Source: an uncultured virus (IMG/VR IMGVR_UViG_3300036961_000217) (Duplodnaviria; Heunggongvirae; Uroviricota; Caudoviricetes). From it: DNA of 64,000 nt. How positions within the stretch are numbered: position 1 is the stretch's first letter; each line of letters opens with the position of its first letter. The stretch lies in IMG/VR virus record IMGVR_UViG_3300036961_000217; one strand, given 5' to 3'. The position numbers and the translations under genes are program-made. Under the pieces are notes generated by a model. The model made no database searches, had not been told where the DNA came from, and saw nothing but the letters and a program-made list of their open reading frames with translations. Positions 1,817 to 39,870 of this stretch are shown here, one piece after another.

Positions 1817-4492
1817 CTAGAAAGCTTCCTTGCTTTGTCCCTTCAACGAATTGGCTCCTGTAATAATGCTATTCGCCAATTTAGTCTTAAACAATTTCAC
1901 AATTTTAGATTTATTTCCTGGATCAGACACGTCAGACGAGTCTTTCAGCCCTGCATCATAGAGGACTTTTGCTCTTTTTGCTCCCACACCCGGTATCGAA
2001 ACCAGATTGACAAGGCATTCTGGAATTCCATAAATTACGCGAGTAGCCAGAGACTTCCACAATTTATCCTTTTCCCATCGAGCATACAATGAATCAGTAA
2101 GGGCCATGCTCTGTACAACTCTTGGAACATCATAGCGAATTGTGCTCATGAAAGTCCTCAAACTGCCATTCGCTTCTTCCCCTGTCAAGCATTTATATGC
2201 AGCCAAAACCATGTGGATATTCATGAATGGCTTGATATTCCTGTCTCTCAATTCCCAACTGAGCCATTCACATTCATCCTTCAATTCCTTTGGGACGTAA
2301 CCGAGATCGTAACTTGGAACATTTGCCAATGCCCATGCAAGATCAATTTCATCTTGATGAGGTTTTTGCAGAATGTTTGAGCAATTCAAATATCTGGCAT
2401 AGACATCATATGGGCTGAAGTAGAGCCAGCTTGCCACCCTTCCAAGCCCAGTTACTTGAACATTCATTCCAGATGAATCTTTCTGAATCATCTGCATGTC
2501 AAATAACGCCTGCAGAAGATCCTCTGCATCATCGAGCATGAAATCAGGTTGTTGCATGAAGGCTAGTGATCGTTGAAACCAAGAGCAAATGTCTCTTGCA
2601 TTTTTAATTTCTCTAGATTCAATTTCACTTATGACATGAAATGCAAGTGTAGCTTTTTCATTCATAACGGAAAGAACTGGTATTGGATTAATAAACATGT
2701 CCATCCATCTATTAGAAGACCCTTTTGGAAGAATTAAATATACATCTCCAGCATCATCTACGCCATACCTACCAGCACGCCCACTAGCCTGAACAAGATC
2801 TCTAGGATCGATTTCATTAATCCCTCGATGACATCCATTTACGATGACGTTCCTGGCAGGTAATGTTAATCCCCAAGCACAGGTAGATGTTGCTATCATC
2901 ACCCTTAATCCATTAGTTCTATTCCTAAATGAATCTTCCAGTTCTTTTCTTGATTCTTTATCTTCATCTGCGTTGTGAAATTTTACCTCCTCCCCTCTTC
3001 TTTTAAAATCCTCAATAAGTTGTCTCCCATTTGTTTTGTCCCAAACAAAGATCAAAAACTTTTCTTTTGGTTTAGACATTGCTATATCAACTACCATACT
3101 TCTCTTTCTTGCCTGTGTTGCTCCATAATCCATTCTTCCCCAACTATTAATTATATTCTCATATTCAATTGGATGAATATCGAGATGTACTGGTCTCCAA
3201 GTGGAATGAAATATTTTTGTTTCTTTTCCATTTAATGAGGTTAACCAATTTCCAAGTTCTTTTACATTTGGCATTGTAGCAGATAGAAAAACAATTTGGG
3301 CTGATGGATTGATTTTTGTAAATCTCATAATACCGCTCTCGACTGCGTGACCACGATCCTTCACCCCGATTATGTGAGACTCATCACAAATTACCAATCC
3401 AACTTCCATTAGCCAGTAATTTTTTTCCTGCTTCATGCGCCTTGATCGAGAATCAGCCATTTCTGCAGTCATTACAATGATTTGCGATTTTCCAAGCTTC
3501 TTCTTCATAGCTTCACTGAGGACGTAATCCCCAGTGAGAATGGTGATTTCCTTCCCCTCGAATCGCTTTTGCCAATCATCGTATTTCTCTTGAGTCAGAG
3601 CTTTCAATGGAGAAAGATAGATCACTCTCTTTCCAGTTTCGAGAACAGGATCAATGAGAAGTTCTGCAGCAATGGTTTTTCCAGCCGATGTGTTGGCTGA
3701 AATCACCATGTTTACATCGTCCTTCGAGAATGGATAGACCATGGATTGCACAGGATTAAAATTCTCGAAAGGATAGGAATAATATGAAAATTCTGAAGTT
3801 GGAACTAGCTCAACTTTGCCGTCATCACCCAAAGAACTCTCAGGCTCAACATCCCCTGATTGTACCATTTCATTATCGACCGAAACTTCCTCTCCTTCCT
3901 TCTCTGCTCCTTCTTCTTTGCTTTCATCTCGAATCTCCTCTAGGCTATTTAAATAGTTTTCAAGAAAATTTGGGTCTGTTCCTTTCACTTGGGTTTCGAG
4001 CGTATCTCCACCACGGGGAGTTTGCTTGCCAAGGACATAAGCAAGTTGTCCTGAAGTCAGGGATTTATACTTGTCCAAACTTTCCAGTAGGGAATTGACA
4101 AATCTGGATTTTTTTAAAACCGGAGAGGATAGAATCGCTTTTACATAATCAGGATCGATGATGTTGACATTCTCAGCTTGTTTCATGAGATCTGCAATTC
4201 TATCCTTCACTCTGTCGTCAATCGTAGTTTTCCCTTCTACTCTGTTAATTCGTTTTCCCTTCCCTATCGGGCGTTGATTCTTGTTGTCCCATAAAATGAA
4301 TTTAATGGAATCCTTCCCATCGTCCCTGGTTATTCCTTCTGTTTTGTCAACGGAACTGAAGATTCGAATGAAGCAATCCTTCTTCTGCGTAGGGATTTGA
4401 TATACATATTCCATCGCACCTGAAGAATCTACCTCTTCGAATCCTTCGGGAAGAGTTTTCTCAAACTGTTCCTTCGTCAGTTGTACGAACAT
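1817..4492 (-). CDS. Ski2/Hel308-like SF2 helicase with N-terminal extension and C-terminal HhH
   Basis: Q motif FNPVQ, TSAGKT, PLKAL, DESH, SAT, QASGRAGR, IPGVGAKRA. Confidence 0.9.
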   Translation of the reverse strand: MFVQLTKEQFEKTLPEGFEEVDSSGAMEYVYQIPTQKKDCFIRIFSSVDKTEGITRDDGKDSIKFILWDNKNQRPIGKGKRINRVEGKTTIDDRVKDRIADLMKQAENVNIIDPDYVKAILSSPVLKKSRFVNSLLESLDKYKSLTSGQLAYVLGKQTPRGGDTLETQVKGTDPNFLENYLNSLEEIRDESKEEGAEKEGEEVSVDNEMVQSGDVEPESSLGDDGKVELVPTSEFSYYSYPFENFNPVQSMVYPFSKDDVNMVISANTSAGKTIAAELLIDPVLETGKRVIYLSPLKALTQEKYDDWQKRFEGKEITILTGDYVLSEAMKKKLGKSQIIVMTAEMADSRSRRMKQEKNYWLMEVGLVICDESHIIGVKDRGHAVESGIMRFTKINPSAQIVFLSATMPNVKELGNWLTSLNGKETKIFHSTWRPVHLDIHPIEYENIINSWGRMDYGATQARKRSMVVDIAMSKPKEKFLIFVWDKTNGRQLIEDFKRRGEEVKFHNADEDKESRKELEDSFRNRTNGLRVMIATSTCAWGLTLPARNVIVNGCHRGINEIDPRDLVQASGRAGRYGVDDAGDVYLILPKGSSNRWMDMFINPIPVLSVMNEKATLAFHVISEIESREIKNARDICSWFQRSLAFMQQPDFMLDDAEDLLQALFDMQMIQKDSSGMNVQVTGLGRVASWLYFSPYDVYARYLNCSNILQKPHQDEIDLAWALANVPSYDLGYVPKELKDECEWLSWELRDRNIKPFMNIHMVLAAYKCLTGEEANGSLRTFMSTIRYDVPRVVQSMALTDSLYARWEKDKLWKSLATRVIYGIPECLVNLVSIPGVGAKRAKVLYDAGLKDSSDVSDPGNKSKIVKLFKTKLANSIITGANSLKGQSKEAF

Positions 4493-5247: not shown

Positions 5248-6255
5248 TTATCTATATTGATCTGTTACGTCTTCACCTGTTGCAACATCAAAGACCTGTA
5301 TGATCTCAATCATATCAGCAGATGCTTTTCCATCCGTAGCCCATGGCTCGTTAATTTGAGCATTTTCTGGAATCCTAATTTTTGCTTCTAATGGTCGATC
5401 AGGGTAATATACAGCACACCATGATCTAGATGCGAAATGAAAACCAGGATAGGAGCAAACGACCCTTTCATCAGAAGCGAATATTTCATTCTTTCTTAAT
5501 GTATTGAGTCCTATTTTGAATTTGTATTGATTATTGACGAGTCCCCTTCCAAATCTTTTCCAATAATAGTTACCATGTTCTACTCCCATTATTTTTATTA
5601 AATGTCTTGCTCTAGAGAGATCTGCTCCATAGAGATTTGCTCCATAGAGATTTGCTCTAGAGAGATCTGCTCCAGAGAGATTTGCTCCAGAGAGATTTGC
5701 TCCATAGAGATTTGCTCTAGAGAGATTTGCTCCAGAGAGATTTGCTCCATAGAGATTTGCTCTAGAGAGATCTGCTCCATAGAGATCTGCTCCATAGAGA
5801 TTTGCTCTAGAGAGATCTGCTCTAGAGAGATTTGCTCCAGAGAGATTTGCTCCATAGAGATTTGCTCTAGAGAGATTTGCTCCAGAGAGATCTGCTTCAG
5901 AGAGATCTGCTTCAGAGAGATTTGCTCCATAGAGATCTGCTCTAGAGAGATTTGCTCCATAGAGATTTGCTCTAGAGAGATCTGCTCCATAGAGATCTGC
6001 TCCATAGAGATTTGCTCCATAGAGATCTGCTCTAGAGAGATTTGCTCCATAGAGATTTGCTCTAGAGAGATCTGCTTCAGAGAGATTTGCTCCAGAGAGA
6101 TCTGCTCCATAGAGATTTGCTCTAGAGAGATTTGCTCTAGAGAGATCTGCTTCAGAGAGATTTGCTCCAGAGAGATCTGCTCTAGTGCCATCTTCGTTAT
6201 TACTTAGCCATGATGCGTGTTTTTCTAAAATAATAGTCAATTCTTCTTTTGTCAT
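5248..6255 (-). CDS. Pentapeptide repeat protein with unique C-terminal domain
   Basis: 38 A(D/N)L(S/Y)(G/R/E) units. Confidence 0.93.
5611..6180 (-). repeat. 15-bp coding tandem repeat, 38 units (GCA RAT CTC TMT RRA)
   Basis: Read directly from the sequence. Confidence 0.97.
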
Positions 6256-6265
6256 GTTTTTCCCC

Positions 6266-6538
6266 TTAGTATTTTAATTGTTCTTCTTCGTAGGAAATCT
6301 TACCAAGACAGTTGACATTGTTGACACGCAGGTCCAAATCCTCTAAATGTTCATATAATTGATCTCTTGCATCCTCTAGATCATATCCACCATGAATCGT
6401 TTCAAAGAAAAATTGATTTTCAGTAAATACATAACCAGAATTTGTTATTTTGAATTCACTGTATTTCAACTTCTCTTCCGGATCTTCTCCGTATTTCACA
6501 TCTAAAATTACAGACCATTCCCAGTAGTGTTTAGTCAT
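6266..6538 (-). CDS. Hypothetical protein
   Basis: Coupled ORF in early arm. Confidence 0.65.
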
Positions 6539-7079: not shown

Positions 7080-7412
7080 TCATCTACTTAGCAAATGACA
7101 ATTACTCCAAGTTTCTCTCCTGTCATGTAAAGCAATTGGCTGTCTTGATGGAAATCGAGAATCATCAGTGTAGATGAATGTCCCACTCGCCATCCATGGT
7201 GTTAGTTCGTCTGTTTGCCCTGAGTCTTCACTTGGAGTTGCATAAAGATAATTACCATGCTTCTTTAGGTATACCGCAGGAAATTGTTTGTTTGGCTTAA
7301 ATGTTCCAAGTTCACGATCAGGGTCAATTAGGGTTAGGTAAGAGTATCCACTTAGTTCTCCTCCAAGTGAACCTATTTTCGTTCTATAAACACTAACATG
7401 TAAACCTCTCAT
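7080..7412 (-). CDS. Hypothetical phage protein
   Basis: ORF in operon; DSRF...PIALHDR motif recalled from phage proteins. Confidence 0.7.
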   Translation of the reverse strand: MRGLHVSVYRTKIGSLGGELSGYSYLTLIDPDRELGTFKPNKQFPAVYLKKHGNYLYATPSEDSGQTDELTPWMASGTFIYTDDSRFPSRQPIALHDRRETWSNCHLLSR

Positions 7413-9182: not shown

Positions 9183-9629
9183 TTATTTCTTTTCTGGTCT
9201 AAAAGTAATAGAAAGTTCAGATTCCTTCATTGATTCTGCAACAACCAATTCAATTGCAGAATCATCCATCTTCATCTTCTTCAGATAGCATCTGAGAAGA
9301 TCTTCTTTGTTCTGTTTGACATATGCCAATACTTTATCAACCGTGTCGATTTTGAAATATTTCTTGAGACTGGTTTTCATGAGAGTGTCATCCAGGGACG
9401 GTTTCCTATCCAGGACCGTAGCAGAACCGATTCCAGACACCTTGATTCCGTCAATTTTTAGTTCGTCATAGATAATTTGAAGTAGAGATTCAGTATTCTC
9501 CTTTTTCTCCACCTTCAAACCATCCTCAATTTCCTTCAGTTCTTGCCTTCGAAGGAACAGGGTTTTGACTTTTCCCTGGACTTTCTTAGGCAGTTCATCC
9601 AACGTCCTGATTTTCTTTTCTTTTGTCAT
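9183..9629 (-). CDS. Lys-rich hypothetical protein
   Basis: Strong RBS; extended -10-like TGTTATAAT upstream (~9665-9673). Confidence 0.7.
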   Translation of the reverse strand: MTKEKKIRTLDELPKKVQGKVKTLFLRRQELKEIEDGLKVEKKENTESLLQIIYDELKIDGIKVSGIGSATVLDRKPSLDDTLMKTSLKKYFKIDTVDKVLAYVKQNKEDLLRCYLKKMKMDDSAIELVVAESMKESELSITFRPEKK

Positions 9630-9772
9630 GTTTTTCTCCTTGGTTAAAGTTTATTTTAAATAGATTATAACATAAGACCTACATTTCTTTCTCAAAAAAT
9701 GTAGGTTTCACAAGGATTTTTTAACATCCTCGTTTCCAGGCAGGGCTCCTTATCCTGCCAAGAACCAAAATG

Positions 9773-12952: not shown

Positions 12953-13258
12953 CTAGACAAACATGTTATCTTGGTACTCCCTTTTCTCTTTTGTTTTCCA
13001 GTTCCACAAATACCACTCAAACTTCTCTTGGAAAACTTTCCAGGGAACTGGCAGATATTTATTCATTCTATCTTTTGTGGTAACGGTTTTCCATCCTCCA
13101 GAATTAAGTTTGACTTTTCCGTCTTCATAAAAAGTGACAACATTAGTGTCATGAAGACGAACTACAATTCTGTTTTCAAGGTCTACAAGGTAGGTATTAT
13201 TCCCAATCTTTTTAGAGTTTCTACCTTTCAACATTTCTTTTACTTCTTCATAAGTCAT
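12953..13258 (-). CDS. Hypothetical phage protein
   Basis: LNSGGWKTVTTKDRMN motif; strong RBS. Confidence 0.7.
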   Translation of the reverse strand: MTYEEVKEMLKGRNSKKIGNNTYLVDLENRIVVRLHDTNVVTFYEDGKVKLNSGGWKTVTTKDRMNKYLPVPWKVFQEKFEWYLWNWKTKEKREYQDNMFV

Positions 13259-13329
13259 AGTTTTCTCCTTATAACTCAATTCTTGTTTCCGCTATTGCAA
13301 TTTCATTCAGATCAATTTTGTGTTTCATT

Positions 13330-13635
13330 TCACTCTCCTTTCATAAAATCTTTGATCTTCCTTTCCATTTTCCATGACCACAATTGTATCTTCCATGACC
13401 ATGAACGTATTCTATTTTTATAATCACATACTTTTATCTCATATCCATAGTTGCCGAAACTCACGTAAAACGAAAATCCGTCCCAGACATATTCCTTGTG
13501 AAATCTACCAATTCCATACTCTTTAAAATTGCAGTATGTAGTCCTGCAAATTGAGATTCCTAGCCCATAACATAGAACTCCCCTTGCAGGTCCATTTCTC
13601 CAAAAACACGAATCGTGTTCTAGATCTCTTGCCAT
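13330..13635 (-). CDS. Hypothetical protein
   Basis: Coupled to the CCA gene. Confidence 0.6.
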   Translation of the reverse strand: MARDLEHDSCFWRNGPARGVLCYGLGISICRTTYCNFKEYGIGRFHKEYVWDGFSFYVSFGNYGYEIKVCDYKNRIRSWSWKIQLWSWKMERKIKDFMKGE

Positions 13636-13636
13636 T

Positions 13637-14866
13637 TCATTCTCCTTTTTCTAGTTTTCTGAAAAGTTCCACTCTCCTCTGAAACAGAACCTGTCCAAGT
13701 AAAGGCCCAGGTTTAATTCCTTCTGCAACCAAGTCCTTTCCTGTCACGCCATCTTTTGCAGATAAAGCATCTGCAATCCTATCGTGAGCAGTGGCAAATT
13801 TCTCAACTTCCGAGAAGACATCTGCCCCTTCCCGACAAGTTGAATCTAGAAACGAGACTCGAAAGATATCATACAGATGCTTCTCATTCTCTAAAACAAA
13901 CTTCACAACCTTCCCTGGTTTCATCTTGGGAAGGTTTTTAATCCTCATATGCTCAGAGCTACATTTCACTCCAAATTCCTTTAGTTCATTAGGAATTCGA
14001 AGTCGTTTACAGAATTCCTCGATACAAGGCACACCTAACGAATCATGCCCGAAGTGATGAGGATGTTTGTCAGGATCGGTTTCGCCTTTGCCGAAATCAT
14101 GGCAGAGCAATCCAAACCTGATTTTAAATTCGTCAGTCGAATTCAACAGGTTCATGACATGACGAAAGGCAGTCCCGTCATGCATGTCAGAAACATGCAA
14201 TTTTGAGATTTCTGGAAACCAGTGATCTAGCAGACCACATGAGTCCAAAGTCTCGAAAAAACGGGCAGGAAACGCCTCACAGAGGGTCTTCTGCAACTCA
14301 ATCCAGACCCTTTCCCCTTTGAGATTTTTGATTTCCTCTTTCAAGGATTTCATAACCTCCAAGGTGTCAGGATGAACAGAAAACCCGAATCTGGAAACAA
14401 ATCTCGCAACCCGAAAAACCCTCAATGGATCTTCGGCAAATGCATCACTGACATGCCGAAGAATTCCATTTTCAAGATCTTCCTGTCCATTGAACGGGTC
14501 GAACAGTTCACCTGTCAGGCAGTCAATGGCCATTGCGTTAATGGTCAAATCACGCCTGAACAGATCCTGTTCAATGGTAACATTCTCGTCGGAGAAGAAT
14601 GTGAACCCATGGTAGCCCACGCCATTCTTTTTCTCTTTTCTGGCAAGGGCGATTTCACATTTCTGCCCGTCAATTTCTACAAGAAATACAGGGGCATCAT
14701 GCCCAACTGGTTTTTCCCATGGGATGTTTTCCAGGGATAAACCTGTCACGACATAATCCCTGTCCTTTGCAGAAATGCCAAGGAACTGGTCCCTGACAAA
14801 TCCGCCGACAATAAAAGCCCTACCACCAAGAGACTTGATGGAAAGGGCAAATTCTTTCTCAGTCAT
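13637..14866 (-). CDS. cca: Class II tRNA nucleotidyltransferase (CCA-adding) with HD domain
   Basis: VGGFVRD, DRD, ARKE..G.GYHGF, DLFRRDLTINAMA, EDPLRVFRVARF, ERVWIE, CHDFGK. Confidence 0.9.
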   Translation of the reverse strand: MTEKEFALSIKSLGGRAFIVGGFVRDQFLGISAKDRDYVVTGLSLENIPWEKPVGHDAPVFLVEIDGQKCEIALARKEKKNGVGYHGFTFFSDENVTIEQDLFRRDLTINAMAIDCLTGELFDPFNGQEDLENGILRHVSDAFAEDPLRVFRVARFVSRFGFSVHPDTLEVMKSLKEEIKNLKGERVWIELQKTLCEAFPARFFETLDSCGLLDHWFPEISKLHVSDMHDGTAFRHVMNLLNSTDEFKIRFGLLCHDFGKGETDPDKHPHHFGHDSLGVPCIEEFCKRLRIPNELKEFGVKCSSEHMRIKNLPKMKPGKVVKFVLENEKHLYDIFRVSFLDSTCREGADVFSEVEKFATAHDRIADALSAKDGVTGKDLVAEGIKPGPLLGQVLFQRRVELFRKLEKGE

Positions 14867-14928
14867 TTTAAACCTCCTTTTCTCCAGAAAACATGACAAT
14901 CTAGCAGACTCTCAAATTTCCTGGAAAC

Positions 14929-14969
14929 AAAAAAGCCCTGCAGGACATGGAACATAATCCTGCAGGGCT
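14929..14969 (-). terminator. Intrinsic terminator
   Basis: AGCCCTGCAGGA stem plus T-tract on the minus strand. Confidence 0.75.
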
Positions 14970-15632
14970 GGGAATTACACTGAAAGAATTGGTTTTCCTA
15001 CAGTGTAGGTCATAGAGTTATTGTATGCAATGATTGACTGAATTTCACGACGAGACAATTCAAGTCTTTCAAATTCCGAAAAATCGCGCAACCTGTTTTG
15101 TGTTGCGCGATAGATAGAACATTTCTCCTCCAGGTCTTTTTCGAAAAGCTGATCTGAAAGGAGGAGAGCGTGAATCATTTCTTCCCACATAACAATTCTC
15201 CTTCTTAGAGTTTCACGATTTTCCCGCCGAACATGCGACGGGCTTTTAAAGCTTTGCTTGAAGAAATATAGTATTGGTTCATAAACCTGGAAGTTTTTGG
15301 GAAAACGATCTTCCAGACATAGCCACATTGTTTCGCAAGTTTGTCGCTCATTTCTTCACCTCCACCGTTACGGTAAAGGTTTCTCTTCTACCGTTCAAAA
15401 CACGAACGGCAATGAATTGACCTGATTTAATGACTTCTGGCATAGCTTTCTCCTTGTAATTGAAGTTTGATTGAAACAGAGCGATATGCTCCAAGCATCT
15501 TTCATATTTCTATGAAAAATCCTTGCAACAAAAAACCCTGGAAATCTAAAAAATCAGATGATTGCAGCCTTCATAATTTCCAGAATTCTCCAGGGAAATT
15601 CATATAAAATCAAATTTCCCTGGAGAATATAA

Positions 15633-15995
15633 CTAGAACGTGTCACGAAATCTGACAAAACGGAAAATCGAAACTTTTGTTCCGTCAGGCTTCTCCTCCA
15701 CAACTCTGGCAGTAGTAGAGTGAATAACATGAATTTCGTGTTCTCTAAGACGTGTAGCAAGACGGGTAATAAAACCCGTCTCTCCCATTAAATGGACATA
15801 ATGAGTTTCAAACATGGTAACATAGCTCCAAATCTTAGCAAACCAAACATCAACTAAATCCTCAAGTTCGATGGAGGTCAATTCGGGACTTACATTTGGA
15901 AATCCCAGATCGATAATCTCACCAAATTCCTGAGCACTTTTCAATTGCTCAGGACTCCACTTTTCCGACGAATGATTGGAAACATTAATGAGCAT
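15633..15995 (-). CDS. Csx20-like CRISPR-associated protein, putative ring nuclease
   Basis: SNH...W..EQ; VHLMGE.GF; HSTT.R.VEE..DG.K.S.F.FVRFR, matching the recalled Csx20-type motif; AAGGAGG RBS. Confidence 0.7.
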   Translation of the reverse strand: MLINVSNHSSEKWSPEQLKSAQEFGEIIDLGFPNVSPELTSIELEDLVDVWFAKIWSYVTMFETHYVHLMGETGFITRLATRLREHEIHVIHSTTARVVEEKPDGTKVSIFRFVRFRDTF

Positions 15996-16344
15996 AACAA
16001 TCCTCCTTAAAATCAAAATTCCCTCCAACAAGGAAACATAGAACAATTCCATATTCCCTTGCAACAAGGAATGAGCCAGTTTTATGTCGTGGCTCACGAC
16101 ATGGAATTTCTAGCTGAGCTTCCACATTCCAACAAGCCCAGCTAGAATGATGCAATAACAGAATAATGTTTCCATTATTTCCCCTCCATTAAAGAGATAA
16201 TCGCAGACACCATGAACGTAACAAGCCAGACAAGGCAAACAAGTTCACCCTGCCCGAAGGAATGATTAAAAACTGAAAAATCAGCGAACATAGTGCTGAC
16301 ACAGCAGAGAATGGTGCTGACAAGAACAAGGATTTTCCCCATTT

Positions 16345-16551
16345 TTAAATCCCTCCAGTTAAATGAGATTTCTTTAAAGCACGGGTTTGCCTAGCCAATT
16401 CCAGGCAAATAGAGCAAATCCCACCTGAAACAGATTCCGAACAAACAAACCTGCAACCTGAACAATGGTTGCAGTGAACCTGTTTCTTGTCTTGTAAACA
16501 GCCAAAAACTCGCCCACATCTAATGCATTTGTACACAAAAGACGTTGTCAT
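16345..16551 (-). CDS. Small Cys-rich protein
   Basis: Several CxxC motifs; RBS. Confidence 0.55.
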   Translation of the reverse strand: MTTSFVYKCIRCGRVFGCLQDKKQVHCNHCSGCRFVCSESVSGGICSICLELARQTRALKKSHLTGGI

Positions 16552-16640
16552 AATAATCTCCTTTCGTAGTAAAATGCATTCCAGAAAATCAAGAAAATCA
16601 AACACATGAGTGTTTAACTTTCCAAAATTTCTGGAAAATA

Positions 16641-16682
16641 AAAAACCCCTGGAAAATCATATAAAATCAATTTTCCAGGAAA
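16641..16682 (-). terminator. Intrinsic terminator
   Basis: CCTGGAAAAT stem plus T-tract; related copy at ~15590-15623. Confidence 0.6.
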
Positions 16683-16696
16683 CTTCATGAAGAAAA

Positions 16697-16939
16697 TCAC
16701 TCCTCACAAACCTGGAAAGCAGAAATCTTTCCAGAAGAAATCAATTGACTTCCATACAGATTTGCTTCCTGAAAAGAATCAAACCTCCTCCTGATTTTTT
16801 TGGTTTTCCCATTTTTCTTTTTCCCATAAACAACATAGAACAAAGAAGATCTTGCCTCTTGTTCCTGGAACCAGCTAATAGCAGAATTCCTACCAATCTG
16901 CCATTCACTCAGGTCATTCGCAAACTTAAAATCGGACAT
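16697..16939 (-). CDS. Hypothetical protein
   Basis: GGAGG RBS. Confidence 0.6.
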   Translation of the reverse strand: MSDFKFANDLSEWQIGRNSAISWFQEQEARSSLFYVVYGKKKNGKTKKIRRRFDSFQEANLYGSQLISSGKISAFQVCEE

Positions 16940-17792
16940 AACAATCCTCCAAAACCAGATTTCTATAAAATGAAAATTCCCTCCAACAAGGAATTTTCAG
17001 AAAAAAACAGAACAGGTTTAAGTCAAAAAGAAGGGGTAGCACGCCAAAAATCGACATGCTACCCCAAAGGAAAACACCATCAACAAAATGAATACTAAGC
17101 TTTGTCGATGGTTGTCAGGATTCAAGCCTCACTGACATGGCTAGAGATCATAAGCCTTAGCTCATATGGCATAAGAGGAAAAGCACTCAGGAATCGTATG
17201 GCATCCTGATGTCACCATGAAGATGCTAGCCAAACAATGTCTAGCTCGACATATGATATGCCCACAAAAGTATAGCAGAGATTGGTCAAAAGATCGTCTT
17301 GGCAATGGCGAAACATTGCACCAAGGTTCAGCGTTGCGGGCTACATATGTGATAGTTGTCCTAGTCACATATCCCGTACATGGAGCTAATCAGCTCCACA
17401 CCTATCATCCCCCTGATAGGATCATTATCCGTTTCGCTACCTGGAACATGGAAGTCAGTATGCTAATCGGCATGGAAGTGTAGCAGGTCTACGGATTAAA
17501 CCTTCTTAGTCGCCTTCCACCAAAAATGTTCCTTCACTGAACATGTTTGGTGCTGCGTGAGTTTTGTTGTTCTCCGTCACCGGCCTAGCATGGTAACAAT
17601 CAAGGTACAATACCTTGATCAGTATCGTAAACGGTTTTGGCGGTAATGTACGGGTTATCGCCCTTGCCCTAATACGTTGCCGAAACATGTAATCCTATAC
17701 GGACTCGACATGTTTTGCATTCCGAGCCGGCTATGCTCATATTTAGCCTGCTAAACTCCATTATCAGGTTAACAAAAAACATCCTACAAACA

Positions 17793-17830
17793 CGAAAAGC
17801 CGACCACAAGTGAACATGGTCGGCTTTTCG
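17793..17830. terminator. Terminator-like hairpin, possibly bidirectional
   Basis: CGAAAAGCCGACCA / TGGTCGGCTTTTCG. Confidence 0.65.
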
Positions 17831-17891
17831 TATCGATAGAATGTAAAGCTACATGATTTCAAAAGCATCGATTTTACCCTTCCAGAAAGCA

Positions 17892-17927
17892 GGAAAGCCG
17901 TCAAGGTGTTACCCTTGACGGCTTTCC
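17892..17927 (-). terminator. Terminator after the 17944 gene
   Basis: 15-bp perfect stem GGAAAGCCGTCAAGG. Confidence 0.75.
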
Positions 17928-17943
17928 ATCGGGATTGGTTTGA

Positions 17944-18657
17944 TTATTCGGCTTTATCAGCGTTATCAGCAAGACCCCTTGCTTCTCCAACTTCGCGGAG
18001 GATGGTCATGAAGTTTGTTACCATATTGTCTTCGAAGAGCTTCTCCGCAAAGCGCCTGAACCCCTCTTTACTCAGCTTCAATTGACGAAGAGCTGCAAGG
18101 TCTTTCTCGAACTCCTTAGGGTCATCGCCCCGGCGTTCGGCTATTTCGACCGCATCTTTATCACTTGCGACAATGCCTTTTGACTTGACAAGGCCATAGT
18201 GATTCCGAATCGCGTCAAGCGATTCGCCCCTACAAAAGCGCCGGATGCAGTCAACCATGCCGGCCTTACCATTGTCGGTCTTAACCTTGACCAGAATCCC
18301 CTTAAGTACCTGCGCATTGCGAAAGGTTCCAAGATCGTAGAATTCATGACCGATTTCGTCGGCAAGCTTTGCAATGGCAGAGTATTGTTGCAAGGTGTTA
18401 ATCGCTAAGCGTTCAATCTTGCCATGCATCTTTGTCGCTACTTTCTTGATGGTCACTTCGTTAGCGGTTGCGTAGGCGTTCATGGCTCTGCCGATAGAAA
18501 CCGCACCCTTAAGGGCGCTTTCCTCTTGCTCTATTGCGTATCGTGCAAGGCTACCATACGAGTTTAGCATGCTAAACTCGTCAGGAGCGGTCTGGACGTC
18601 AGGAATGCTGGTGGTCTCAGGGGCCTCAGGATCAACGGTTTGGTTCTTCTTGCTCAT
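17944..18657 (-). CDS. Hypothetical protein, stand-alone transcription unit
   Basis: 237 aa, RBS, own terminator, GC-richer codons than neighbours. Confidence 0.8.
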   Translation of the reverse strand: MSKKNQTVDPEAPETTSIPDVQTAPDEFSMLNSYGSLARYAIEQEESALKGAVSIGRAMNAYATANEVTIKKVATKMHGKIERLAINTLQQYSAIAKLADEIGHEFYDLGTFRNAQVLKGILVKVKTDNGKAGMVDCIRRFCRGESLDAIRNHYGLVKSKGIVASDKDAVEIAERRGDDPKEFEKDLAALRQLKLSKEGFRRFAEKLFEDNMVTNFMTILREVGEARGLADNADKAE

Positions 18658-18790
18658 GTGTTTGTCCTTTCATGCTCAAGGTTATGGGTCAATAGGGCAT
18701 ACAGCATGCCCTTCACTTGTCGGTCACAAGACCAAGGACAAGTGGAGGGGGTGAATTGGCTTCCCAGGCTAATCTATGGGCATTGGGCGT

Positions 18791-18953
18791 ATACCCCCCC
18801 ACATGATTTTGTATTTTTTGAGATTCCTTAATAGATTTCATGTCATTCTGTACCCCCGCACAATTTCATATTTTTTGGAATTGCTTATATATTCTCATAG
18901 ATAATTCAAGCAGTGGTCTATCCAACACAATTTCATATTAATTGCTCAATAGG
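18791..18953. repeat. Three degenerate direct repeats (C-rich start, CAC-ATTTYRTATT...ATT(C/G)CT-AT)
   Basis: Copies at ~18791, ~18851 and ~18919. Confidence 0.6.
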
Positions 18954-19306
18954 TTTTATACAGCCTATCACAACAGAGAAAAAATAGGATTTCATTCCTT
19001 GGTTTTATTCCTGGAATTGAAATCCTGCTGAAGTTGGTTTTGTTTTTCTGGAAAGGGTTAAAAGGTTTTCGTGCTACGGGTAATTACACCGACTTTCCCC
19101 CAGGACTTGAATTGATGTGGTTTTTATGAAAACTCCTTTAAATCGGCTGAAATTGGCTGAAATTGGGTGTGTGTAATTTCAGGTACTTAGCTACGATTTT
19201 TTGGAAAATCGCCCATAGGGTTTTTCCAAAAAATTTCGCCTATAGAATGGCTCTGTACAACGATTCTTTAGAAAATAAGAGAAATTGAAAGCTTTTGCTG
19301 AAATTG

Positions 19307-19504
19307 TCATCTAAGCTTCCTGTTGATTACTTCTGATAAATCATAGAGTCTATCAAGAATTTCATCCACCTTGTTCTCAAGTGATGGTTTCCTGTTGAAT
19401 TCTTCAATTGCTTTTCTTATTGCTTGGCTGATTGTTTCGAATTCCTTCTTTGATTCGAGTTTTTTGATTTCCTCTTCTGGAATTCTTACCTGAATTGTTT
19501 TCAT
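19307..19504 (-). CDS. Ribbon-helix-helix (CopG-like) regulator
   Basis: TIQVRIPEEEIKKLE...TISQAIRKAIEEF. Confidence 0.75.
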   Translation of the reverse strand: MKTIQVRIPEEEIKKLESKKEFETISQAIRKAIEEFNRKPSLENKVDEILDRLYDLSEVINRKLR

Positions 19505-25848: not shown

Positions 25849-25874
25849 AGCCAAGCTTCTTGCTTGGCTTTTTT
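25849..25874 (+). terminator. Intrinsic terminator just upstream of terS
   Basis: AGCCAAGC-TTCTT-GCTTGGCT-TTTTT. Confidence 0.75.
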
Positions 25875-25898
25875 GTTATCTGCAATTGGAGTGGAATC

Positions 25899-26603
25899 AT
25901 GAGGCGCATTCAAGTTAAAGACATCAAAATCAATCGTCCAACCAATTATCGTGAGCTTATGCAGGCTCATCGTGGGTATGGTTCGTCTAAGGATGAAGAC
26001 GGTCTCAATCTTCGCCAGAGAAAGTTTGTCGAATACTACATGGAGACTGGTAATCCTGGCGAGGCTTACAAAATGGCTGGAGGGATCGATTATCAGGATC
26101 AACAAATTACGAATCTTCGTGCCGCAAACATGTTGAAAAATCCCTATGTGAAAGAAGCCGTCAAGAAAAGACAGCAGCATTTTCAGAATAAGATGGAGAT
26201 CTCTCAAGAACGAGTTCTGCAGGAATACGCCTGTATCGCATTTTCAAAACTCACCGATTATTATGATGTTACCGAGAATGATGTTATCATAAAGAAACCA
26301 ACCGAACTTACTCCAGAGCAGCAAGCGGCTATTGCCGATATCTCCATTTTTGAAAATGTTGTTTCAGGTACTCGTCGCGTTGCAAAAGTCAAGCTTCATG
26401 ACAAGACTGAAGCATTGAAGTCTCTGAGCAAGTTCTTGGGCCTGTTCGAGAAAGACAATAAGCAGCGATCCAATGTCAATATCAAGATCGATGAAATTCT
26501 TTCTGGTCTTCCTCCTGAAATTGCAAATGCAGTCAGAAATAAGATTGTAAATGAAATAAAACCAATCGAATCGTATAATATGGATAACAGAACTATCAAT
26601 TAG
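25899..26603 (+). CDS. terS: Terminase small subunit
   Basis: RQRKFVEYY, LKNPYVK, VLQEYACIAF, KLHDK.AL..L.K.LGLF. Confidence 0.9.
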   Translation: MRRIQVKDIKINRPTNYRELMQAHRGYGSSKDEDGLNLRQRKFVEYYMETGNPGEAYKMAGGIDYQDQQITNLRAANMLKNPYVKEAVKKRQQHFQNKMEISQERVLQEYACIAFSKLTDYYDVTENDVIIKKPTELTPEQQAAIADISIFENVVSGTRRVAKVKLHDKTEALKSLSKFLGLFEKDNKQRSNVNIKIDEILSGLPPEIANAVRNKIVNEIKPIESYNMDNRTIN

Positions 26604-26611
26604 GTCATTTT

Positions 26612-29350
26612 ATGGAACAAGCTCAGATAGATCAGATAGTTCAAAATATCCTATTAAATTATCCTCCTGATTATCTAAAGCAATGGGCAGATAGTAATCA
26701 ATATCTTAAATATCAGAGTGACCCGATAGGGTTTGGAAGAGACATATTAAAGGAGACTTATACTACAGATGTAGAAAACATGATGCTCTCTGTTAGAGAT
26801 CATCAAATGACTGTTGCTATATCGGGTAATTCTACTGGGAAGTGCGTAGAAGAGAATGAACGCATTATCCTCTCGGATGGGACTCTTGTTGTAGCGAAGG
26901 ATTTGATAGGCCAAAAATTTTCGATTTTGTCTTTTGGAGACGACTGGAAGCAAAAATCTTGTTCTGCTTTTGCATTTGATAATGGAGTTCAGCCAGTATT
27001 TAAAGTATCTATTGACGGTGGAAGAGAGATAGTTAGGACAGGAAATCATCCGTTATGGGCCGCTAGATTAAAGAAGACTAAAAATTCGAAACATGCTTTA
27101 CTTACTGTTGTTGATATGGGATGGAAAACTATTTCTGAATTGTCTAGTGAAGATATCGTTGCTGTACCAACAAAACTCAATACCATTAGACATAATGAAC
27201 AGGACGAAGACGATATTAAATTAGCTGCCTACTTATTAGCTGATGGTTGTATTATTAATGATATTAGATTTACTAAAAAATGTGGTATTGTTAAGAACGA
27301 ATTCGTAGAAATTATAGAAAGAATGGGATGTATTGCAAAGAAAACTGCAGATCCAAATACAATAAGAATTACAACCGATGAAAAATATCATGGATATGAT
27401 TCGAATCCTATACGGAATATAGTTAAGAGTTGGGGAATATTTGGTACAAAATCAAAACACAAAAGATTTCCAGATTGGATTTGGAGACTTTCTGACGACC
27501 AATTAGGACTATTCCTTAATAGGTTGTTCTCTTGTGATGGATGGGCCTATTCTAAGATTACAAAAAAAGGAAATAGGACCGAAATAGGATATTCATCAGC
27601 ATCAAAAGACATGATTGAAGATGTTTATTTTGCAGCATTAAGACTTGGTATTAGAGGTGATATTGTATACAAACTTGCCAAATGTGACGGTAAAAGTTTC
27701 GATGCATGGGTATGGACAATAAGAGATAAAGTCAATATCGACTTATTTAATAAAAATATTGGTCTTTTTGGAAAGCAAGAAGCACTTGATAGATGTGTTG
27801 ATATTAACAATGATAAAACCAAGACATTAAAATGGCCATACGTTAATATTCCAAGTGGATATAAATGGGAAAAAGTAAAATCAGTAGAGTACATTGGCGA
27901 TAAACCGACAGTCGGGATAAGTGTTCCGACTACCAATGTTTATTTAACAGACTTCGTTGAACATAATACGCATAGTTCTGCTAGTTTGGCTTTATGGTTT
28001 TATTTATGTCACCCAAGCTCTCTTATATTTACTGCGGCAGCACCTCCTTTAGATAATTTAAAACGTCTTTTGTGGGGAGAAATTGGAAGAAAAATATCTA
28101 GATGTAAAGACGATATATTCAATGGACACACATATAATGTAATGCATTTATGTGACAGTGAATGGCATTATATTACAGGTGTTGCGATTCCTCAATCGGG
28201 TGCTCCAGAACAAAAGACAGCGAAATTCTCTGGGAAGCACAGTCCGTACATGCTCTTTATAGTGGATGAAGCAGATGCAGTACCAGATGAAATATTTACA
28301 GGTATCGAAGGTTGCATGTCAGGTGGCCATGTTCGTTTGCTCTGTATGTTTAACCCCAGAATCATGGCTGGCTATGTCTATCGCAAAATTAGAGACAATC
28401 AATGTAATGTGGTTCATCTGTCAGCCTTCAATCACCCCAATGTGGTAACTGGCAAGGAAGTCTATCCAGGGGCAGTTTCGAGAGAAATAACAGTAAAACG
28501 AATCAATGAATGTTCCATTCCTCTTTATGCTACCGACGAGCCTGATCAGTACACATTTGAAGTCCCAAAATTCTTAGTTGGATGTACCGCAAAAAACGAT
28601 AAGGGAGTTGTCTACCCTCCTCTTCAGCCTGGATATCGAAAGGTTACGGACGCTCGTTTCTTCCACCAAGTCTTAGGCAGGTTTGGTCCACAAGGAGCAA
28701 ATCAGTTAGTTCCTCAAGACGCTATTGATCGAGCAAGATATCGTTGGGACGATTGGGTAAGCAGACACGGTGAAAATCCTCCTGAATTGGTTAGGCCGAT
28801 TTATGGCTTAGATGTTGCCGACCTTGGAGATGACAGCAATTGTAGATGTAAGAGATATGGGGATTGGGTAGCAAGATTTACTAGTTGGAAAGGTATTCAT
28901 CCTAATGAGTCTGCAGAACGTGTTGCTGACGAAGCCAAGATTGACAGTTCACTTAATGTGAATGTGGATTCGATTGGTATTGGGGTAGATGTCGCCCCGT
29001 TGCTTAGAAAAGCAGGAGTCAAAGCTTCTGGAATAAATATAGCAGAAAAACCTACCAAGGAGTATAAGAAGGACGAAAAGAACGTACTAAAGTTCTTTAA
29101 ATTAAGGGATCAACTCTATTGGGATACTGCAGAGTGGATTAAGAGTGATTATTCAATGCTTCCTCCAGATGAAAGGCTTATTGAGGAAGCAATGTGTATC
29201 ACTTACGAAGAAGACAAGACGACACGAAAGATCCGAGTGCTGTCAAAGGATAAAATGAAGGATGCTTTAGGAAGAAGTCCAGATCATTGGGATTCGTTGA
29301 CATTGACATTTGCACCAAAACCTAGATCTCCAAAGGCTAGGATATTATGA
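26612..29350 (+). CDS. terL: Terminase large subunit containing an intein
   Basis: Split Walker A GNSTGK/T, IVDEA, GLDVA, GRSPD..DSL. Confidence 0.93.
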   Translation: MEQAQIDQIVQNILLNYPPDYLKQWADSNQYLKYQSDPIGFGRDILKETYTTDVENMMLSVRDHQMTVAISGNSTGKCVEENERIILSDGTLVVAKDLIGQKFSILSFGDDWKQKSCSAFAFDNGVQPVFKVSIDGGREIVRTGNHPLWAARLKKTKNSKHALLTVVDMGWKTISELSSEDIVAVPTKLNTIRHNEQDEDDIKLAAYLLADGCIINDIRFTKKCGIVKNEFVEIIERMGCIAKKTADPNTIRITTDEKYHGYDSNPIRNIVKSWGIFGTKSKHKRFPDWIWRLSDDQLGLFLNRLFSCDGWAYSKITKKGNRTEIGYSSASKDMIEDVYFAALRLGIRGDIVYKLAKCDGKSFDAWVWTIRDKVNIDLFNKNIGLFGKQEALDRCVDINNDKTKTLKWPYVNIPSGYKWEKVKSVEYIGDKPTVGISVPTTNVYLTDFVEHNTHSSASLALWFYLCHPSSLIFTAAAPPLDNLKRLLWGEIGRKISRCKDDIFNGHTYNVMHLCDSEWHYITGVAIPQSGAPEQKTAKFSGKHSPYMLFIVDEADAVPDEIFTGIEGCMSGGHVRLLCMFNPRIMAGYVYRKIRDNQCNVVHLSAFNHPNVVTGKEVYPGAVSREITVKRINECSIPLYATDEPDQYTFEVPKFLVGCTAKNDKGVVYPPLQPGYRKVTDARFFHQVLGRFGPQGANQLVPQDAIDRARYRWDDWVSRHGENPPELVRPIYGLDVADLGDDSNCRCKRYGDWVARFTSWKGIHPNESAERVADEAKIDSSLNVNVDSIGIGVDVAPLLRKAGVKASGINIAEKPTKEYKKDEKNVLKFFKLRDQLYWDTAEWIKSDYSMLPPDERLIEEAMCITYEEDKTTRKIRVLSKDKMKDALGRSPDHWDSLTLTFAPKPRSPKARIL
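26843..27967 (+). mobile_element. 375-aa intein with LAGLIDADG endonuclease
   Basis: C1 (CVEENE) to HN/T; LAAYLLADG and FLNRLFSCDG; TGNHP block B. Confidence 0.93.
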
Positions 29351-30842: not shown

Positions 30843-32342
30843 ATGAGACTGCCATTTGGAATTGAAATCAGACGACAAAAACAAAGTCCAAAAACCGAAA
30901 AAAATCCCCTTCTTCGGAGATTGTTGTCTCCATTCCAATATGGTAAGTCATTACTTTATGATACAGACGTAACAAGGCAATTAAACGCCTACCGATCATG
31001 GGTTTATTGCGCTGCAGGATTAAATGCGCAGTGTGTCGCTCAAACCCCTCTTAGATTGTATTTTGCAAAACCCGCCAAGAATATCAAGACTATTTTTCCT
31101 ACCAAGGCAGTGTCTGAAGAAAAAATTGACAATTTAAATAGATTCCATAATATATGGAAAATCCCCGCTGTAAGAAAATCAGTTGGAATAGAAGAGGTTG
31201 TTGAGCATCCCGTTCTTGATTTGTTTCGAACTGTCAATAATTTCAATAATAGTTTTGATTTGTGGGAACTTACGGAGCTTTATCAGGAATTGACTGGTAA
31301 TGCGTACTGGTTGATTCTAAAAGACAAGAAGCTGAAAGTTCCTAGAGAAATTTGGACTATTCCTCCCGATAGAATCACACCTATTCCAGATCCAGACAAG
31401 TTCATTTCTGGATACAAATATGTATACGGCACCACAGAATATACATTTCCTGAAAGTATAATTATTCATTTTAAATTCCCTAATCCTCATAATATGTACT
31501 TAGGAATTGCTCCTCTTAATGCCGGTATTGCTGCGTACAATACAAATGAGAACATGCAAGTTTACAACAATTCAATGTTTCAAAATATGGGAAGACCATC
31601 TGGATTTTTTGAGACGGACGATGTTCTTGATGAAGAAGATTTTCAAAGACTTAAGATTGAATTGCACGATGTCTATTCTGGAGTTCAGAATGTAGGTAAA
31701 ATGGGCCTTTTGGATCATGGCCTTACTTTCCAACAGGTAGGATTAAAACCTGATGAATTGGCATTTATCGATGGAAGAAAGGCAATCCGTGAAGAGATTT
31801 TTAATGTTTATGGTCAGTCTGTAAGTCTTTGGTCAGAGAATACAAATAGAGCTAATGCTGATGCAGCAGAAAGGCAATTTTATCGTAGAACTATCCGTCC
31901 AAGGTGTATTCGTTTAGCAGAAAAATTGAATGAAAAACTCTTGCCACGATATGATGGCAATTTATTTTTTGCTTTTGACGATCCTAGTACCGATGATAAA
32001 TTGATTGACGCTCAAATTCGTAAAATGGATATTGGATCTGGTGTAGTTACAATAAACGAGTCTCGTAAGAAGATGCATCTTCCTCCATTGAAAGATGGTG
32101 ACTCCCCGTTAATACAGATTCAATACGCTCCATTAAGCTCTGTTGTATCTGGAGCGACACTTAATAGTGATCCTGGAGCAACTGCACCTCTTAATGAAGA
32201 CAAACCTAATAATAAACCACCTAAAGACGAAGAAAAACTACCTAAAAATGTAAAACCTTCTAAAGCATTAGTTGAGCATATTTTAATGTCTATGCTTGAA
32301 GATAAGATATACAATCAGAAGCTTAAACAACTTAGCAAATAA
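30843..32342 (+). CDS. HK97-family portal protein
   Basis: WVYCA, HPVLDL, TGNAYW, IIHFK, TINESR. Confidence 0.93.
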   Translation: MRLPFGIEIRRQKQSPKTEKNPLLRRLLSPFQYGKSLLYDTDVTRQLNAYRSWVYCAAGLNAQCVAQTPLRLYFAKPAKNIKTIFPTKAVSEEKIDNLNRFHNIWKIPAVRKSVGIEEVVEHPVLDLFRTVNNFNNSFDLWELTELYQELTGNAYWLILKDKKLKVPREIWTIPPDRITPIPDPDKFISGYKYVYGTTEYTFPESIIIHFKFPNPHNMYLGIAPLNAGIAAYNTNENMQVYNNSMFQNMGRPSGFFETDDVLDEEDFQRLKIELHDVYSGVQNVGKMGLLDHGLTFQQVGLKPDELAFIDGRKAIREEIFNVYGQSVSLWSENTNRANADAAERQFYRRTIRPRCIRLAEKLNEKLLPRYDGNLFFAFDDPSTDDKLIDAQIRKMDIGSGVVTINESRKKMHLPPLKDGDSPLIQIQYAPLSSVVSGATLNSDPGATAPLNEDKPNNKPPKDEEKLPKNVKPSKALVEHILMSMLEDKIYNQKLKQLSK

Positions 32343-38983: not shown

Positions 38984-39071
38984 TTGACATGGCTAGGGTT
39001 CGCGGCCCGAAAACAATGATCCTGACATTGCCGCCATGTCAATTTAACAATTCAGGATGTTCTGTCAGGAG
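38984..39071 (+). ncRNA. Three-way-junction leader whose loop is complementary to the downstream RBS (C4-antisense-like)
   Basis: TTGACATGGC/GCCATGTCAA stem; loop ATCCTGA; TCAGGA at 39052 and 39065. Confidence 0.55.
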
Positions 39072-39078
39072 GACAACA

Positions 39079-39870
39079 TTGAATTGCAACGACATTTCTG
39101 TAATGAGTGATTTAAGGGAAAAATCAAAAAAACGTCCAAAAGTTAAGGCGATTTGTTTAAATTGTGGAGAAGAATTTCTGGTTTATCGCTCTCAAATCGA
39201 ATATAGGAATGGAGGTAAATTTTGTAGTAAAAATTGTAGATATCAATATATGAGAGGAGAAAATCATCCACGAAGCAAACCAAAGATCGATATAATTTGT
39301 GAGACATGTGGCAAATTATTTCATATTAATCAGTACAAGTCTAAGACTGCGAAATATTGTTCTTTAGACTGTAGGAACAAAGCATTGGTTGGAAGGTATG
39401 TTGGAGAAAAAAGCCCAGTATATTCTAGAGTATCTAAACAATGTCCGGTTTGTGGATTAGAATTTACTGTTAAACAATCACAAAATAATCGGTGTATTGA
39501 TAATTGTTGTTCGAAAGAATGCTCGATACAATGGGCTAGTTTGTCTGGCAAGTTTTGTGGAGAGAACAACCCTATGTTTGGAATAATTGGAGACCAGTCT
39601 CCAGCATGGAATGGAGGTTCTTCTAATTTCCCATATCCATTCGAATTTAACAAACAACTTAAACTAGATATTAGGACAAGAGATGAGTTTAAATGTAGAA
39701 TATGTGGGGAAAAGGAGGGAGACATAGCCTTTCCTGTTCACCATATAAATTACAATAGAAATGACAACTTTAATGAAAATTTAATACTACTTTGTGTTAG
39801 TTGTCACTCTAAAACAAATACCAATCGAAATTATTGGGAATCTTATCTAAACAGCCTGATGATTTCTTAA
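39079..39870 (+). CDS. Free-standing HNH endonuclease with Zn-ribbon repeats (TTG start)
   Basis: Three CxxCG...CS..C repeats; VHHINY..N...NL..LC..CH. Confidence 0.88.
   Translation: MNCNDISVMSDLREKSKKRPKVKAICLNCGEEFLVYRSQIEYRNGGKFCSKNCRYQYMRGENHPRSKPKIDIICETCGKLFHINQYKSKTAKYCSLDCRNKALVGRYVGEKSPVYSRVSKQCPVCGLEFTVKQSQNNRCIDNCCSKECSIQWASLSGKFCGENNPMFGIIGDQSPAWNGGSSNFPYPFEFNKQLKLDIRTRDEFKCRICGEKEGDIAFPVHHINYNRNDNFNENLILLCVSCHSKTNTNRNYWESYLNSLMIS

Follow-up and report, generated by a model that had tools for sequence, protein, structure and literature searches.

The 64,000-nucleotide stretch of viral DNA analysed here (hereafter the window; IMG/VR record IMGVR_UViG_3300036961_000217, from an uncultured virus of the Caudoviricetes) carries a leftward gene, csx20-like, that to judge from its sequence is real and probably encodes a functional member of the Csx20 family. 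Membership of the product in this family is close to certain, and we describe it as a stand-alone, putative CARF-like ring nuclease for cyclic tetra-adenylate (cA4). By analogy with the characterised cellular enzyme it is likely to have ring-nuclease activity and, on the same analogy, we lean towards the view that the phage uses it as an anti-CRISPR ring nuclease against type III clustered regularly interspaced short palindromic repeats (CRISPR) immunity, as a sequence-only reading of the same DNA had proposed; as far as analysis of sequence reaches, it supports that proposal. The counter-defence idea for phage Csx20 is already in print and is not new; it is raised or allowed, for mobile csx20 genes, in two papers (PMC12409355; PMC13551039).

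The first of these (PMC12409355, Hoikkala et al. 2025) reports that purified Csx20 degrades cA4 completely when the substrate is in 100-fold excess, that it degrades cyclic tri-adenylate (cA3) fully only at tenfold more enzyme, and that cyclic hexa-adenylate (cA6) is not degraded. Cleavage of cA4 was shown there for one cellular representative, so that the connection of Csx20-type proteins with the breakdown of cyclic oligoadenylate (cOA), which the sequence-only reading had named, is now experimental. The same paper models Csx20 as a dimer with a conserved face and describes it as the commonest ring nuclease, found in 78 type III loci with a strong link to Csx1, and in 4 of 28,114 phage genomes. 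The second paper (PMC13551039, Nucleic Acids Research, 2026) describes csx20 homologues in operons with the ribbon-helix-helix (RHH) regulator Aca14, for example in Pasteurella multocida; its experiments concern the regulator, not Csx20.

Family membership is carried by a match to the PADLOC Csx20 profile PDLC01397 (E 7.6e-32, 108.3 bits), which aligns residues 1-118 with profile positions 1-113 of 114; because an E-value of this size is reached over residues 1-118, the observation lies far beyond chance. The hidden Markov model (HMM) search thus places the protein where the sequence-only reading had put it, in a CRISPR-associated family. Two further PADLOC profiles also match, the Csx20 module of CARF2--CARF_HEPN_CSX20 (3.9e-19) and Csx15/20/peptidase (2e-12). 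A Pfam-A scan of the protein at E <= 10 returned YqeC alone (E 0.085), with no DUF1874 and no CARF model, and a PHROGs search returned nothing better than E 0.027. Six of 13 candidates from a word-based search reached E <= 1e-3; they are 70-100% identical to the protein and all are metagenomic. The precomputed label PF27247.1 is attached to all six of the set formed by the csx20-like protein and five near relatives, and the source records of the six near relatives hold no informative names.

A profile of six close sequences, run against 1.84 billion cluster representatives, found 1975 representatives at E <= 1e-3, of which 1091 reach <= 1e-10 and 3 reach <= 1e-30. Among the best 150 of the 1975, 88 have at most 200 aa, 10 have 201-399 aa and 52 have at least 400 aa; in most of these long ones the match sits at the C-terminus, which we take to be the known fusion architecture of Csx1/Csm6 with Csx20. 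The nearest representatives outside the protein's own clade are about 44-51% identical to it. Two family members, P0007 (293 aa) and P0013 (304 aa), carry two tandem Csx20 domains per chain and so form a covalent pseudo-dimer; the P0007 cluster is present on up to 63 contigs per member.

Conservation was read from a 67-row alignment of stand-alone members that are 36-80% identical to the csx20-like protein. Eight columns are invariant in the 67 sequences (N4, H8, Q17, P33, G71, E72, F113 and F116) and a further 16 are conserved in at least 90% of them (S6, N7, W13, A21, D29, F32, P37, H68, L83, S93, T94, T95, R97, K107, F111 and R117); the csx20-like protein retains 8 of 8 and 16 of 16. The three motifs of the sequence-only reading can be located in the translation. 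Its N-terminal SNH...W..EQ corresponds to S6-N7-H8-SSEK-W13-SP-E16-Q17, where the named residues are present but the spacing between SNH and W had been given one residue too short. Its central hGE.G is M70-G71-E72-T73-G74, and its C-terminal STT.R motif fits residues 93-117 (S93-T94-T95-A-R97-VVE-E101-KP-D104-G105-T-K107-V-S109-I-F111-R-F113-V-R-F116-R117).

The open reading frame (ORF) runs on the minus strand from ATG 15995 to TAG 15635-15633 and encodes 120 aa. We take 15995 as the start because homologues in both alignments that were compared, of 6 and of 67 rows, begin at M-[LF]-I-N, and the strong Shine-Dalgarno sequence AAGGAGGA stands just upstream of it, so that the length, start and ribosome-binding site given by the sequence-only reading hold. 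An in-frame GTG at 16097, which would give 154 aa, was rejected, since the homologues begin at the M-[LF]-I-N that ATG 15995 supplies.

The nearest virus record, G001 (contig L002), is a 63-kb IMG/VR contig with 25% of sampled words in common with the window. The two are syntenic over a 237-aa protein, an 80-aa ORF, Zn-ribbon ORFs, a 55-aa membrane-like ORF, csx20 and a CCA-adding enzyme. Between the window and G001 the csx20 proteins are 77% identical, and over 118 codons the proportion of synonymous differences (pS) is 0.61 and that of nonsynonymous differences (pN) is 0.18, with a ratio of nonsynonymous to synonymous change (dN/dS) of 0.16; synonymous change is near-saturated. Because dN/dS is 0.16, this comparison indicates that the csx20-like gene is under purifying selection. 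That the gene might be an inactive relic is hardly credible in the face of this ratio against a copy with near-saturated synonymous change, of an intact frame with a strong ribosome-binding site, of the retention of all family-invariant residues, and of the confident fold and dimer predictions described below.

Synonymous differences are unevenly spread along the gene, with pS 0.54 in codons 1-92 and 0.88 from codon 93 to the end. Two of the related sequences are mosaics: P0003 joins a window-type N-terminal portion of 94 residues to an L002-type C-terminal tail (KRNVxEK-DSIKTSVFEFCRFRD), and P0004 joins an L002-type N-terminus to a window-type tail. The sequences suggest recombination between phage alleles inside csx20.

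The CCA-adding enzyme lies downstream of csx20 in both phages (at 9705-10958 in L002), and in L002 an extra kinase-like ORF with a P-loop (GLPGSGKST) lies between the two genes, at 9311-9727. The enzyme and the kinase-like ORF may form an RNA-repair module beside the ring nuclease. From the same neighbourhood one could read the csx20-like protein itself as a housekeeping or regulatory protein that processes nucleotides or RNA ends, for example 2',3'-cyclic phosphate ends, together with the tRNA nucleotidyltransferase 0.7 kb downstream; the conservation of the CCA-adding gene as a downstream neighbour in both phages and the P-loop kinase-like ORF of the related phage are in its favour. Yet no Csx20 member is known in such a role, the other viral csx20 contigs have no CCA-enzyme neighbour among their PHROGs matches, and the linkage may just reflect a common accessory-gene region, so that we hold a role in RNA-end processing to be very improbable.

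An AlphaFold2 model from the 67-row alignment (predicted local distance difference test score, pLDDT, 96.5; predicted template modelling score, pTM, 0.86) has a beta-alpha-beta core and a C-terminal beta hairpin. The elements follow in the order beta1 2-5, alpha 15-24, beta 27-29, alpha 41-56, beta 66-69 and alpha 73-85, and the long hairpin is formed by residues 89-101 and 107-118. From this order the SNH and MGE motifs fall in loops directly after two core strands; CARF domains bind their ligand in loops after core strands. A sequence search of the PDB by profile gave nothing below E 0.88, and Foldseek against the PDB gave nothing at E <= 0.001, with Cad1-CARF entries at E of about 1e-2. The top structural neighbours of the model are SAVED domains of effectors of cyclic oligonucleotide-based antiphage signalling systems (CBASS): 8tl0 (SAVED-CHAT, score 7.8) and the Cap5 SAVED entries 7rwk (7.1), 8ysq (6.5) and 8fm1 (6.4). 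The list continues with 9c68 (Cad1-CARF, 6.4), 9w3u (Csm6, 6.2), 8bao (Can2, 5.8), 6vm6 (Cap4, 5.7), 8phb (Cami1, 5.7), 7ygh (Crn1 Sso2081 with cA4, 5.3) and 7qda (CalpL, 5.2). The protein is therefore described as a predicted CARF/SAVED-like alpha/beta domain.

A dimer prediction, one of the checks that the sequence-only reading had put forward, supports a symmetric homodimer at the level of modelling. The score was 0.77, against 0.00 for the best of 3 controls, a mark reached by 20 of 30 proteins solved as one-chain pairs and by 1 of 23 solved as single chains; these counts hold roughly, the calibration having been made without ligand and with other alignments, and the run itself included two molecules of adenosine monophosphate, which were not scored. 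Contact agreement between runs was 100%, with a partner pLDDT of at least 91. The predicted interface comprises residues 37-41, 44, 70-74, 76-78, 80-81, 92, 94-96, 114-115 and 117-120, and so takes in the conserved MGETG and STT segments.

Such a fold and dimer pocket predict binding, not chemistry, and phage Tad and Acb2 proteins act as sponges for other signals. The csx20-like protein might likewise be a sponge, sequestering cyclic oligoadenylate and cleaving it slowly or not at all, an idea put forward in PMC12409355 for Csx15, a protein that showed no activity in the assay used there. It is a slim possibility: the characterised Csx20 turns over its substrate in the large excess noted above (PMC12409355), and the window copy keeps the invariant polar residues H8, Q17 and E72 as well as the near-invariant S6, N7, H68, S93-T95, R97 and K107.

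The reading we favour is instead that of a ring nuclease directed at type III immunity. Residues N4 and S6-N7-H8, in the loop after strand 1, and H68 and G71-E72, in the loop after strand 4, would lie at the dimer axis, which the S93-T94-T95-x-R97 strand and K107 would also line. On detecting phage RNA, the type III Cas10 of the host would make cA4; the Csx20 dimer would bind it and, by analogy with characterised cellular Csx20, cleave it to linear products, which would keep cA4-dependent effectors (Csx1, Can1/2, Cam1 and the like) off. This would be anti-CRISPR action by destruction of the signal, the logic of AcrIII-1 in a different protein family. For the window protein we infer cOA binding and cleavage, substrate range, expression timing and the effect on immunity.

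Relatives of the gene were found in other viruses and in cells. A pattern scan of IMG/VR gave 10 loci, 8 of them with full-length homologues of 35-76% identity; two of these eight contigs are near-identical and one is the G001 contig, and the remaining 2 of the 10 loci are partial matches to residues 2-41. In six viral contexts 92 ORFs were compared with PHROGs, and five contexts contain phage-typical genes: a large terminase in L006; RecT, a replication initiator, a ParB-methyltransferase and both terminase subunits in L009; RecT, an exonuclease and a DNA methyltransferase in L007; an integrase, a repressor and a DnaD-like loader in L003; and an HNH endonuclease and a methyltransferase in L005. 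In the sixth, on a 361-kb contig (L011), none of 14 ORFs had a PHROGs match. From the six contexts it follows that csx20 recurs in unrelated phages, often close to methyltransferases.

Cellular loci were collected by scanning with one narrow peptide pattern from an 11-row alignment, which gave 12 loci and hence a small, pattern-biased sample; L023 (matching only in part, at the end of a contig) and L025 (27% identity over residues 2-48) were dropped before the PADLOC scan. Three of the 10 bacterial or archaeal loci with homologues (116 ORFs, PADLOC E <= 1e-8) are type III-A. In L016, Cas10, Csm3, Csm4, Csm5 and two Csx1/Csm6-type CARF-HEPN genes are followed by Csx20 and then by Cas1 and Cas2; in L017, Csx20, Cas1 and Cas2 lie together at the end of a contig; and L018 combines Csm2-5 with a CARF-PD-DExK effector and a CARF-HEPN-Csx20 fusion of 570 aa. 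Among the other seven loci, L015 carries methyltransferases and PrimPol, which suggests that it is another mobile element.

In a quick tree of 84 rows, which retains every submitted row and is poorly resolved (4 of 81 inner branches are starred), the window protein falls in a five-row clade with support 99, together with the G001 copy and three metagenomic proteins. Viral rows require at least 4 label changes on the tree as drawn, and the well-supported branches force only 1. Owing to the poor resolution, neither one nor many viral acquisitions of csx20 are shown.

Several points weigh against an anti-CRISPR role. The curated NCBIfam equivalog model NF040559 scores below its 70-bit cut-off (30.2 bits, E 4.6e-7) and matches residues 49-118 only, so that the copy counts as Csx20 in a broad sense and its branch is not the one from which the model was seeded. 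No cas gene lies within 7 kb in 7 of the 10 cellular loci, and thus the Csx20 family also lives outside CRISPR loci, which fits carriage on mobile elements and also allows other roles. No Aca-type regulator adjoins the csx20-like gene, whose neighbours have no helix-turn-helix (HTH) or RHH Pfam match at E <= 1e-3, and the titles and abstracts of the Csx20 papers retrieved contain no test of a viral Csx20.

The cas-free cellular loci are also what would be expected of a ring nuclease whose main target is some other cOA defence, such as cA3 CBASS or SAVED/CARF effectors, or whose range is broadened to cA3 and cA4. The complete degradation of cA3 by Csx20 at tenfold higher enzyme (PMC12409355) and the predominance of CBASS SAVED domains at the top of the list of structural neighbours of the model point the same way. 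We consider such a target unlikely, and prefer type III immunity as the target.

The gene is flanked by structured elements on both sides. Its leader, folded as RNA over 15985-16110 of the minus strand, reaches -41.2 kcal/mol, against -26.4 +/- 3.4 kcal/mol for shuffled sequences (z -4.35), and 0 of 200 shuffles fold as well; the leader hairpin that the sequence-only reading had assigned to the gene is borne out. The hairpin arises from two copies of one motif, an exact one at 16019-16035 and a variant at 16055-16071, and the motif also precedes the 80-aa ORF, at 16977-16993. It is enriched in the window (5 matches against 0.99 expected, a number that 0 of 100 shuffles reach) and recurs in the related contig L002, where it precedes several small genes and reaches 6 matches for an expected 0.23 (with sites at 6311-6327, 7248-7264 and 7284-7300). 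The shorter sequence TTGTTGCAAGG alone, with 4 matches where 1.42 are expected, is not enriched in the window; 7 of 100 shuffles equal this. Past the stop codon, a perfect inverted repeat (-28.8 kcal/mol by RNA folding, z -5.98) forms a hairpin of the terminator-like or processing kind that lacks a canonical T run. Its loop recurs in a sister hairpin, also terminator-like, at 16646-16681 (loop copies at 15600-15613 and 16657-16670); the loop motif itself is not enriched in the window (3 matches against 2.41 expected, 44 of 100 shuffles equal).

As a cassette, the leader combines the palindrome TTCCTTGTTGGAGGGAA with a strong Shine-Dalgarno sequence behind it, and it occurs before several different small leftward genes, both in the window phage and in its relative. 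One of these genes in L002 has no counterpart in the window, and before csx20 in L002 just half of the motif is left. The genes that share the cassette may be co-regulated, with the cassette as their operator or as a control element at the RNA level. One could go further and imagine a specialised viral Csx20, faster or broader in range (cA3 and cA4), that strikes both type III CRISPR and cA3 CBASS-type defences, perhaps within an early anti-defence regulon that shares the palindromic cassette (TTCCTTGTTGGAGGGAA hairpin plus AAGGAGGA), unlike control by Aca repressors; we offer this as a long shot. A 65-aa ORF on the csx20 strand (19307-19504, minus), some 3.3 kb upstream of the gene, has sub-threshold RHH matches only (DUF6290, E 0.009; MatP_C RHH, 0.03; RHH_1, 0.057). 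It is of interest given the published link between the RHH regulator Aca14 and csx20, and is neither adjacent to the gene nor significant.

To judge from its gene content the window is a tailed phage, with matches to PHROGs at E <= 1e-5 for 18 of 31 large ORFs and a GC content of 39.6%. Genes point leftward to the left of about 24.2 kb, and the structural genes point rightward. The csx20-like gene lies on the leftward arm, among small unannotated ORFs and nucleotide-metabolism genes and opposite the structural arm; its placement in an early region by the sequence-only reading is not shown by this position. That reading's statement that the window has neither cas genes nor arrays agrees with what was found: among 73 ORFs no cas family was detected (PADLOC, E <= 1e-5) save an echo of Cas3d, the sole cas-labelled row, which is a weak helicase-domain match in the 891-aa helicase, and the window has no CRISPR-like spaced repeats.

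Coordinates of the csx20-like gene, its flanking elements and the phage genes of the window
Feature	Position	Strand	Basis
csx20-like gene, 120 codons + TAG stop	15633..15995	-	ORF and translation
Shine-Dalgarno sequence AAGGAGGA	16001..16008	-	5 nt before csx20-like ATG, direct sequence reading
Structured 5' leader, long hairpin from two copies of TTCCTTGTTG(G/C)A(G/A)GG(A/G)A	16018..16072	-	RNA folding
Inverted repeat, perfect 16-nt, loop TTGATTTTATATGA	15585..15628	-	5 nt past csx20-like stop, 100% complementary
Helicase	1817-4492		PHROGs
tRNA nucleotidyltransferase (CCA-adding)	13637-14899	-	PHROGs
Small terminase	25860-26603		PHROGs
Large terminase	26612-29350	+	PHROGs
Portal	30843-32342		PHROGs
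Protease	34936-37548	+	PHROGs
Major head protein	37685-38935		PHROGs
Head-tail adaptor	50241-51080		PHROGs
Tape measure	58476-62582		PHROGs
Minor tail	63097 onward		PHROGs

Cultured relatives were sought by megablast with positions 13000-19000 and by tblastn with the protein against 50,697 phage records, with no match in a set that may omit records near the window genome and by a single-sequence tblastn that is less sensitive than the HMMs of PMC12409355. A search for the host by tblastn with the portal, CCA-enzyme and capsid sequences gave distant matches only (<= 44% identity), to phages of many hosts, and no tRNA genes were found in the window. A 335-aa ORF (5248-6255, minus) holds about 39 tandem 15-nt units that encode pentapeptide repeats, and a Kyanoviridae Gp96 Pfam match lies at 12953-13279; the two hint weakly at a cyanobacterial host, which we do not claim.

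Elsewhere in the window, the HNH endonuclease ORF at 38989-39870 comes immediately after the major head gene, with a match to int-alpA RNA at 38986-39056, and just downstream of this ORF stands a complete group I intron core (40013-40235, plus; Rfam 89.3 bits, E 1.7e-21), probably that of a mobile intron in the capsid gene region. Three ORFs of 303-306 aa follow in tandem (41091-42002, 42083-43003 and 43084-44004, plus). The first two, neither of which has a PHROGs match, are 88% identical, with the last ~190 residues identical and the first ~110 variable, and the ORFs have the look of a structural or decoration gene that was recently duplicated and is diversifying at its N-terminus. In the 912-aa large terminase ORF the terminase match starts only at residue 513, and ahead of it a homing endonuclease model (PADLOC HEase, E 4.2e-10) aligns with residues 161-348; the ORF may carry an intein, or a homing endonuclease inserted into it or fused to it. 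The 870-aa ORF at 34936-37548 has an N-terminal part like a head-maturation protease or scaffold (residues 1-200) and a C-terminal AAA-type ATPase part (residues 540-800) with weak IetA and clamp-loader-like matches, an unusual fusion for a head module.

If phages were shown to deploy Csx20, it would become a second, unrelated enzyme family, beside AcrIII-1, that destroys the type III second messenger; AcrIII-1 is so far the main proven viral enzyme against that messenger. If true, this would help to explain the many Csx20 genes outside CRISPR loci. The window copy, which comes from an uncultivated phage lineage and has a syntenic counterpart in a relative, adds one well-preserved example, and it opens no new question.

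Compared with known systems, the window protein shares with cellular Csx20 (PDLC01397, NF040559, PF27247) the full-length profile match, the single domain of about 120 aa and the conserved motifs, and also a symmetric dimer, which is a prediction for the window protein; its modelled fold may be CARF-like. Cellular relatives of its branch, in type III-A loci, either neighbour Csx1-type effectors or form fusions with them. It differs in being phage-encoded, without cas genes or an array, and in scoring under the NF040559 cut-off. With the phage and mobile csx20 genes in print it has in common that it is stand-alone, lies outside a CRISPR locus and is proposed to be a co-opted counter-defence gene (PMC12409355; PMC13551039). 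Unlike the csx20-aca14 operons, the window gene has no adjacent RHH or HTH Aca gene and instead has a palindromic leader cassette common to neighbouring small genes. With AcrIII-1/Crn2 (DUF1874) it would share the proposed mode of action, a small homodimer that destroys cA4 and so disarms type III effectors (PMC12409355). The two have no sequence relationship, the window protein being of another family with a predicted CARF-like, Rossmann-derived fold. The claim of the sequence-only reading that it is unrelated to AcrIII-1 accordingly stands for sequence but not for structure, where PMC12409355 reports a distant likeness among Csx16, Csx20 and Crn2-type proteins. From Crn1, the Sso2081-type CARF ring nuclease, it differs in giving no sequence match below E 0.88 in the profile search of the PDB, in its smaller size and in lacking the extra C-terminal part of Crn1.

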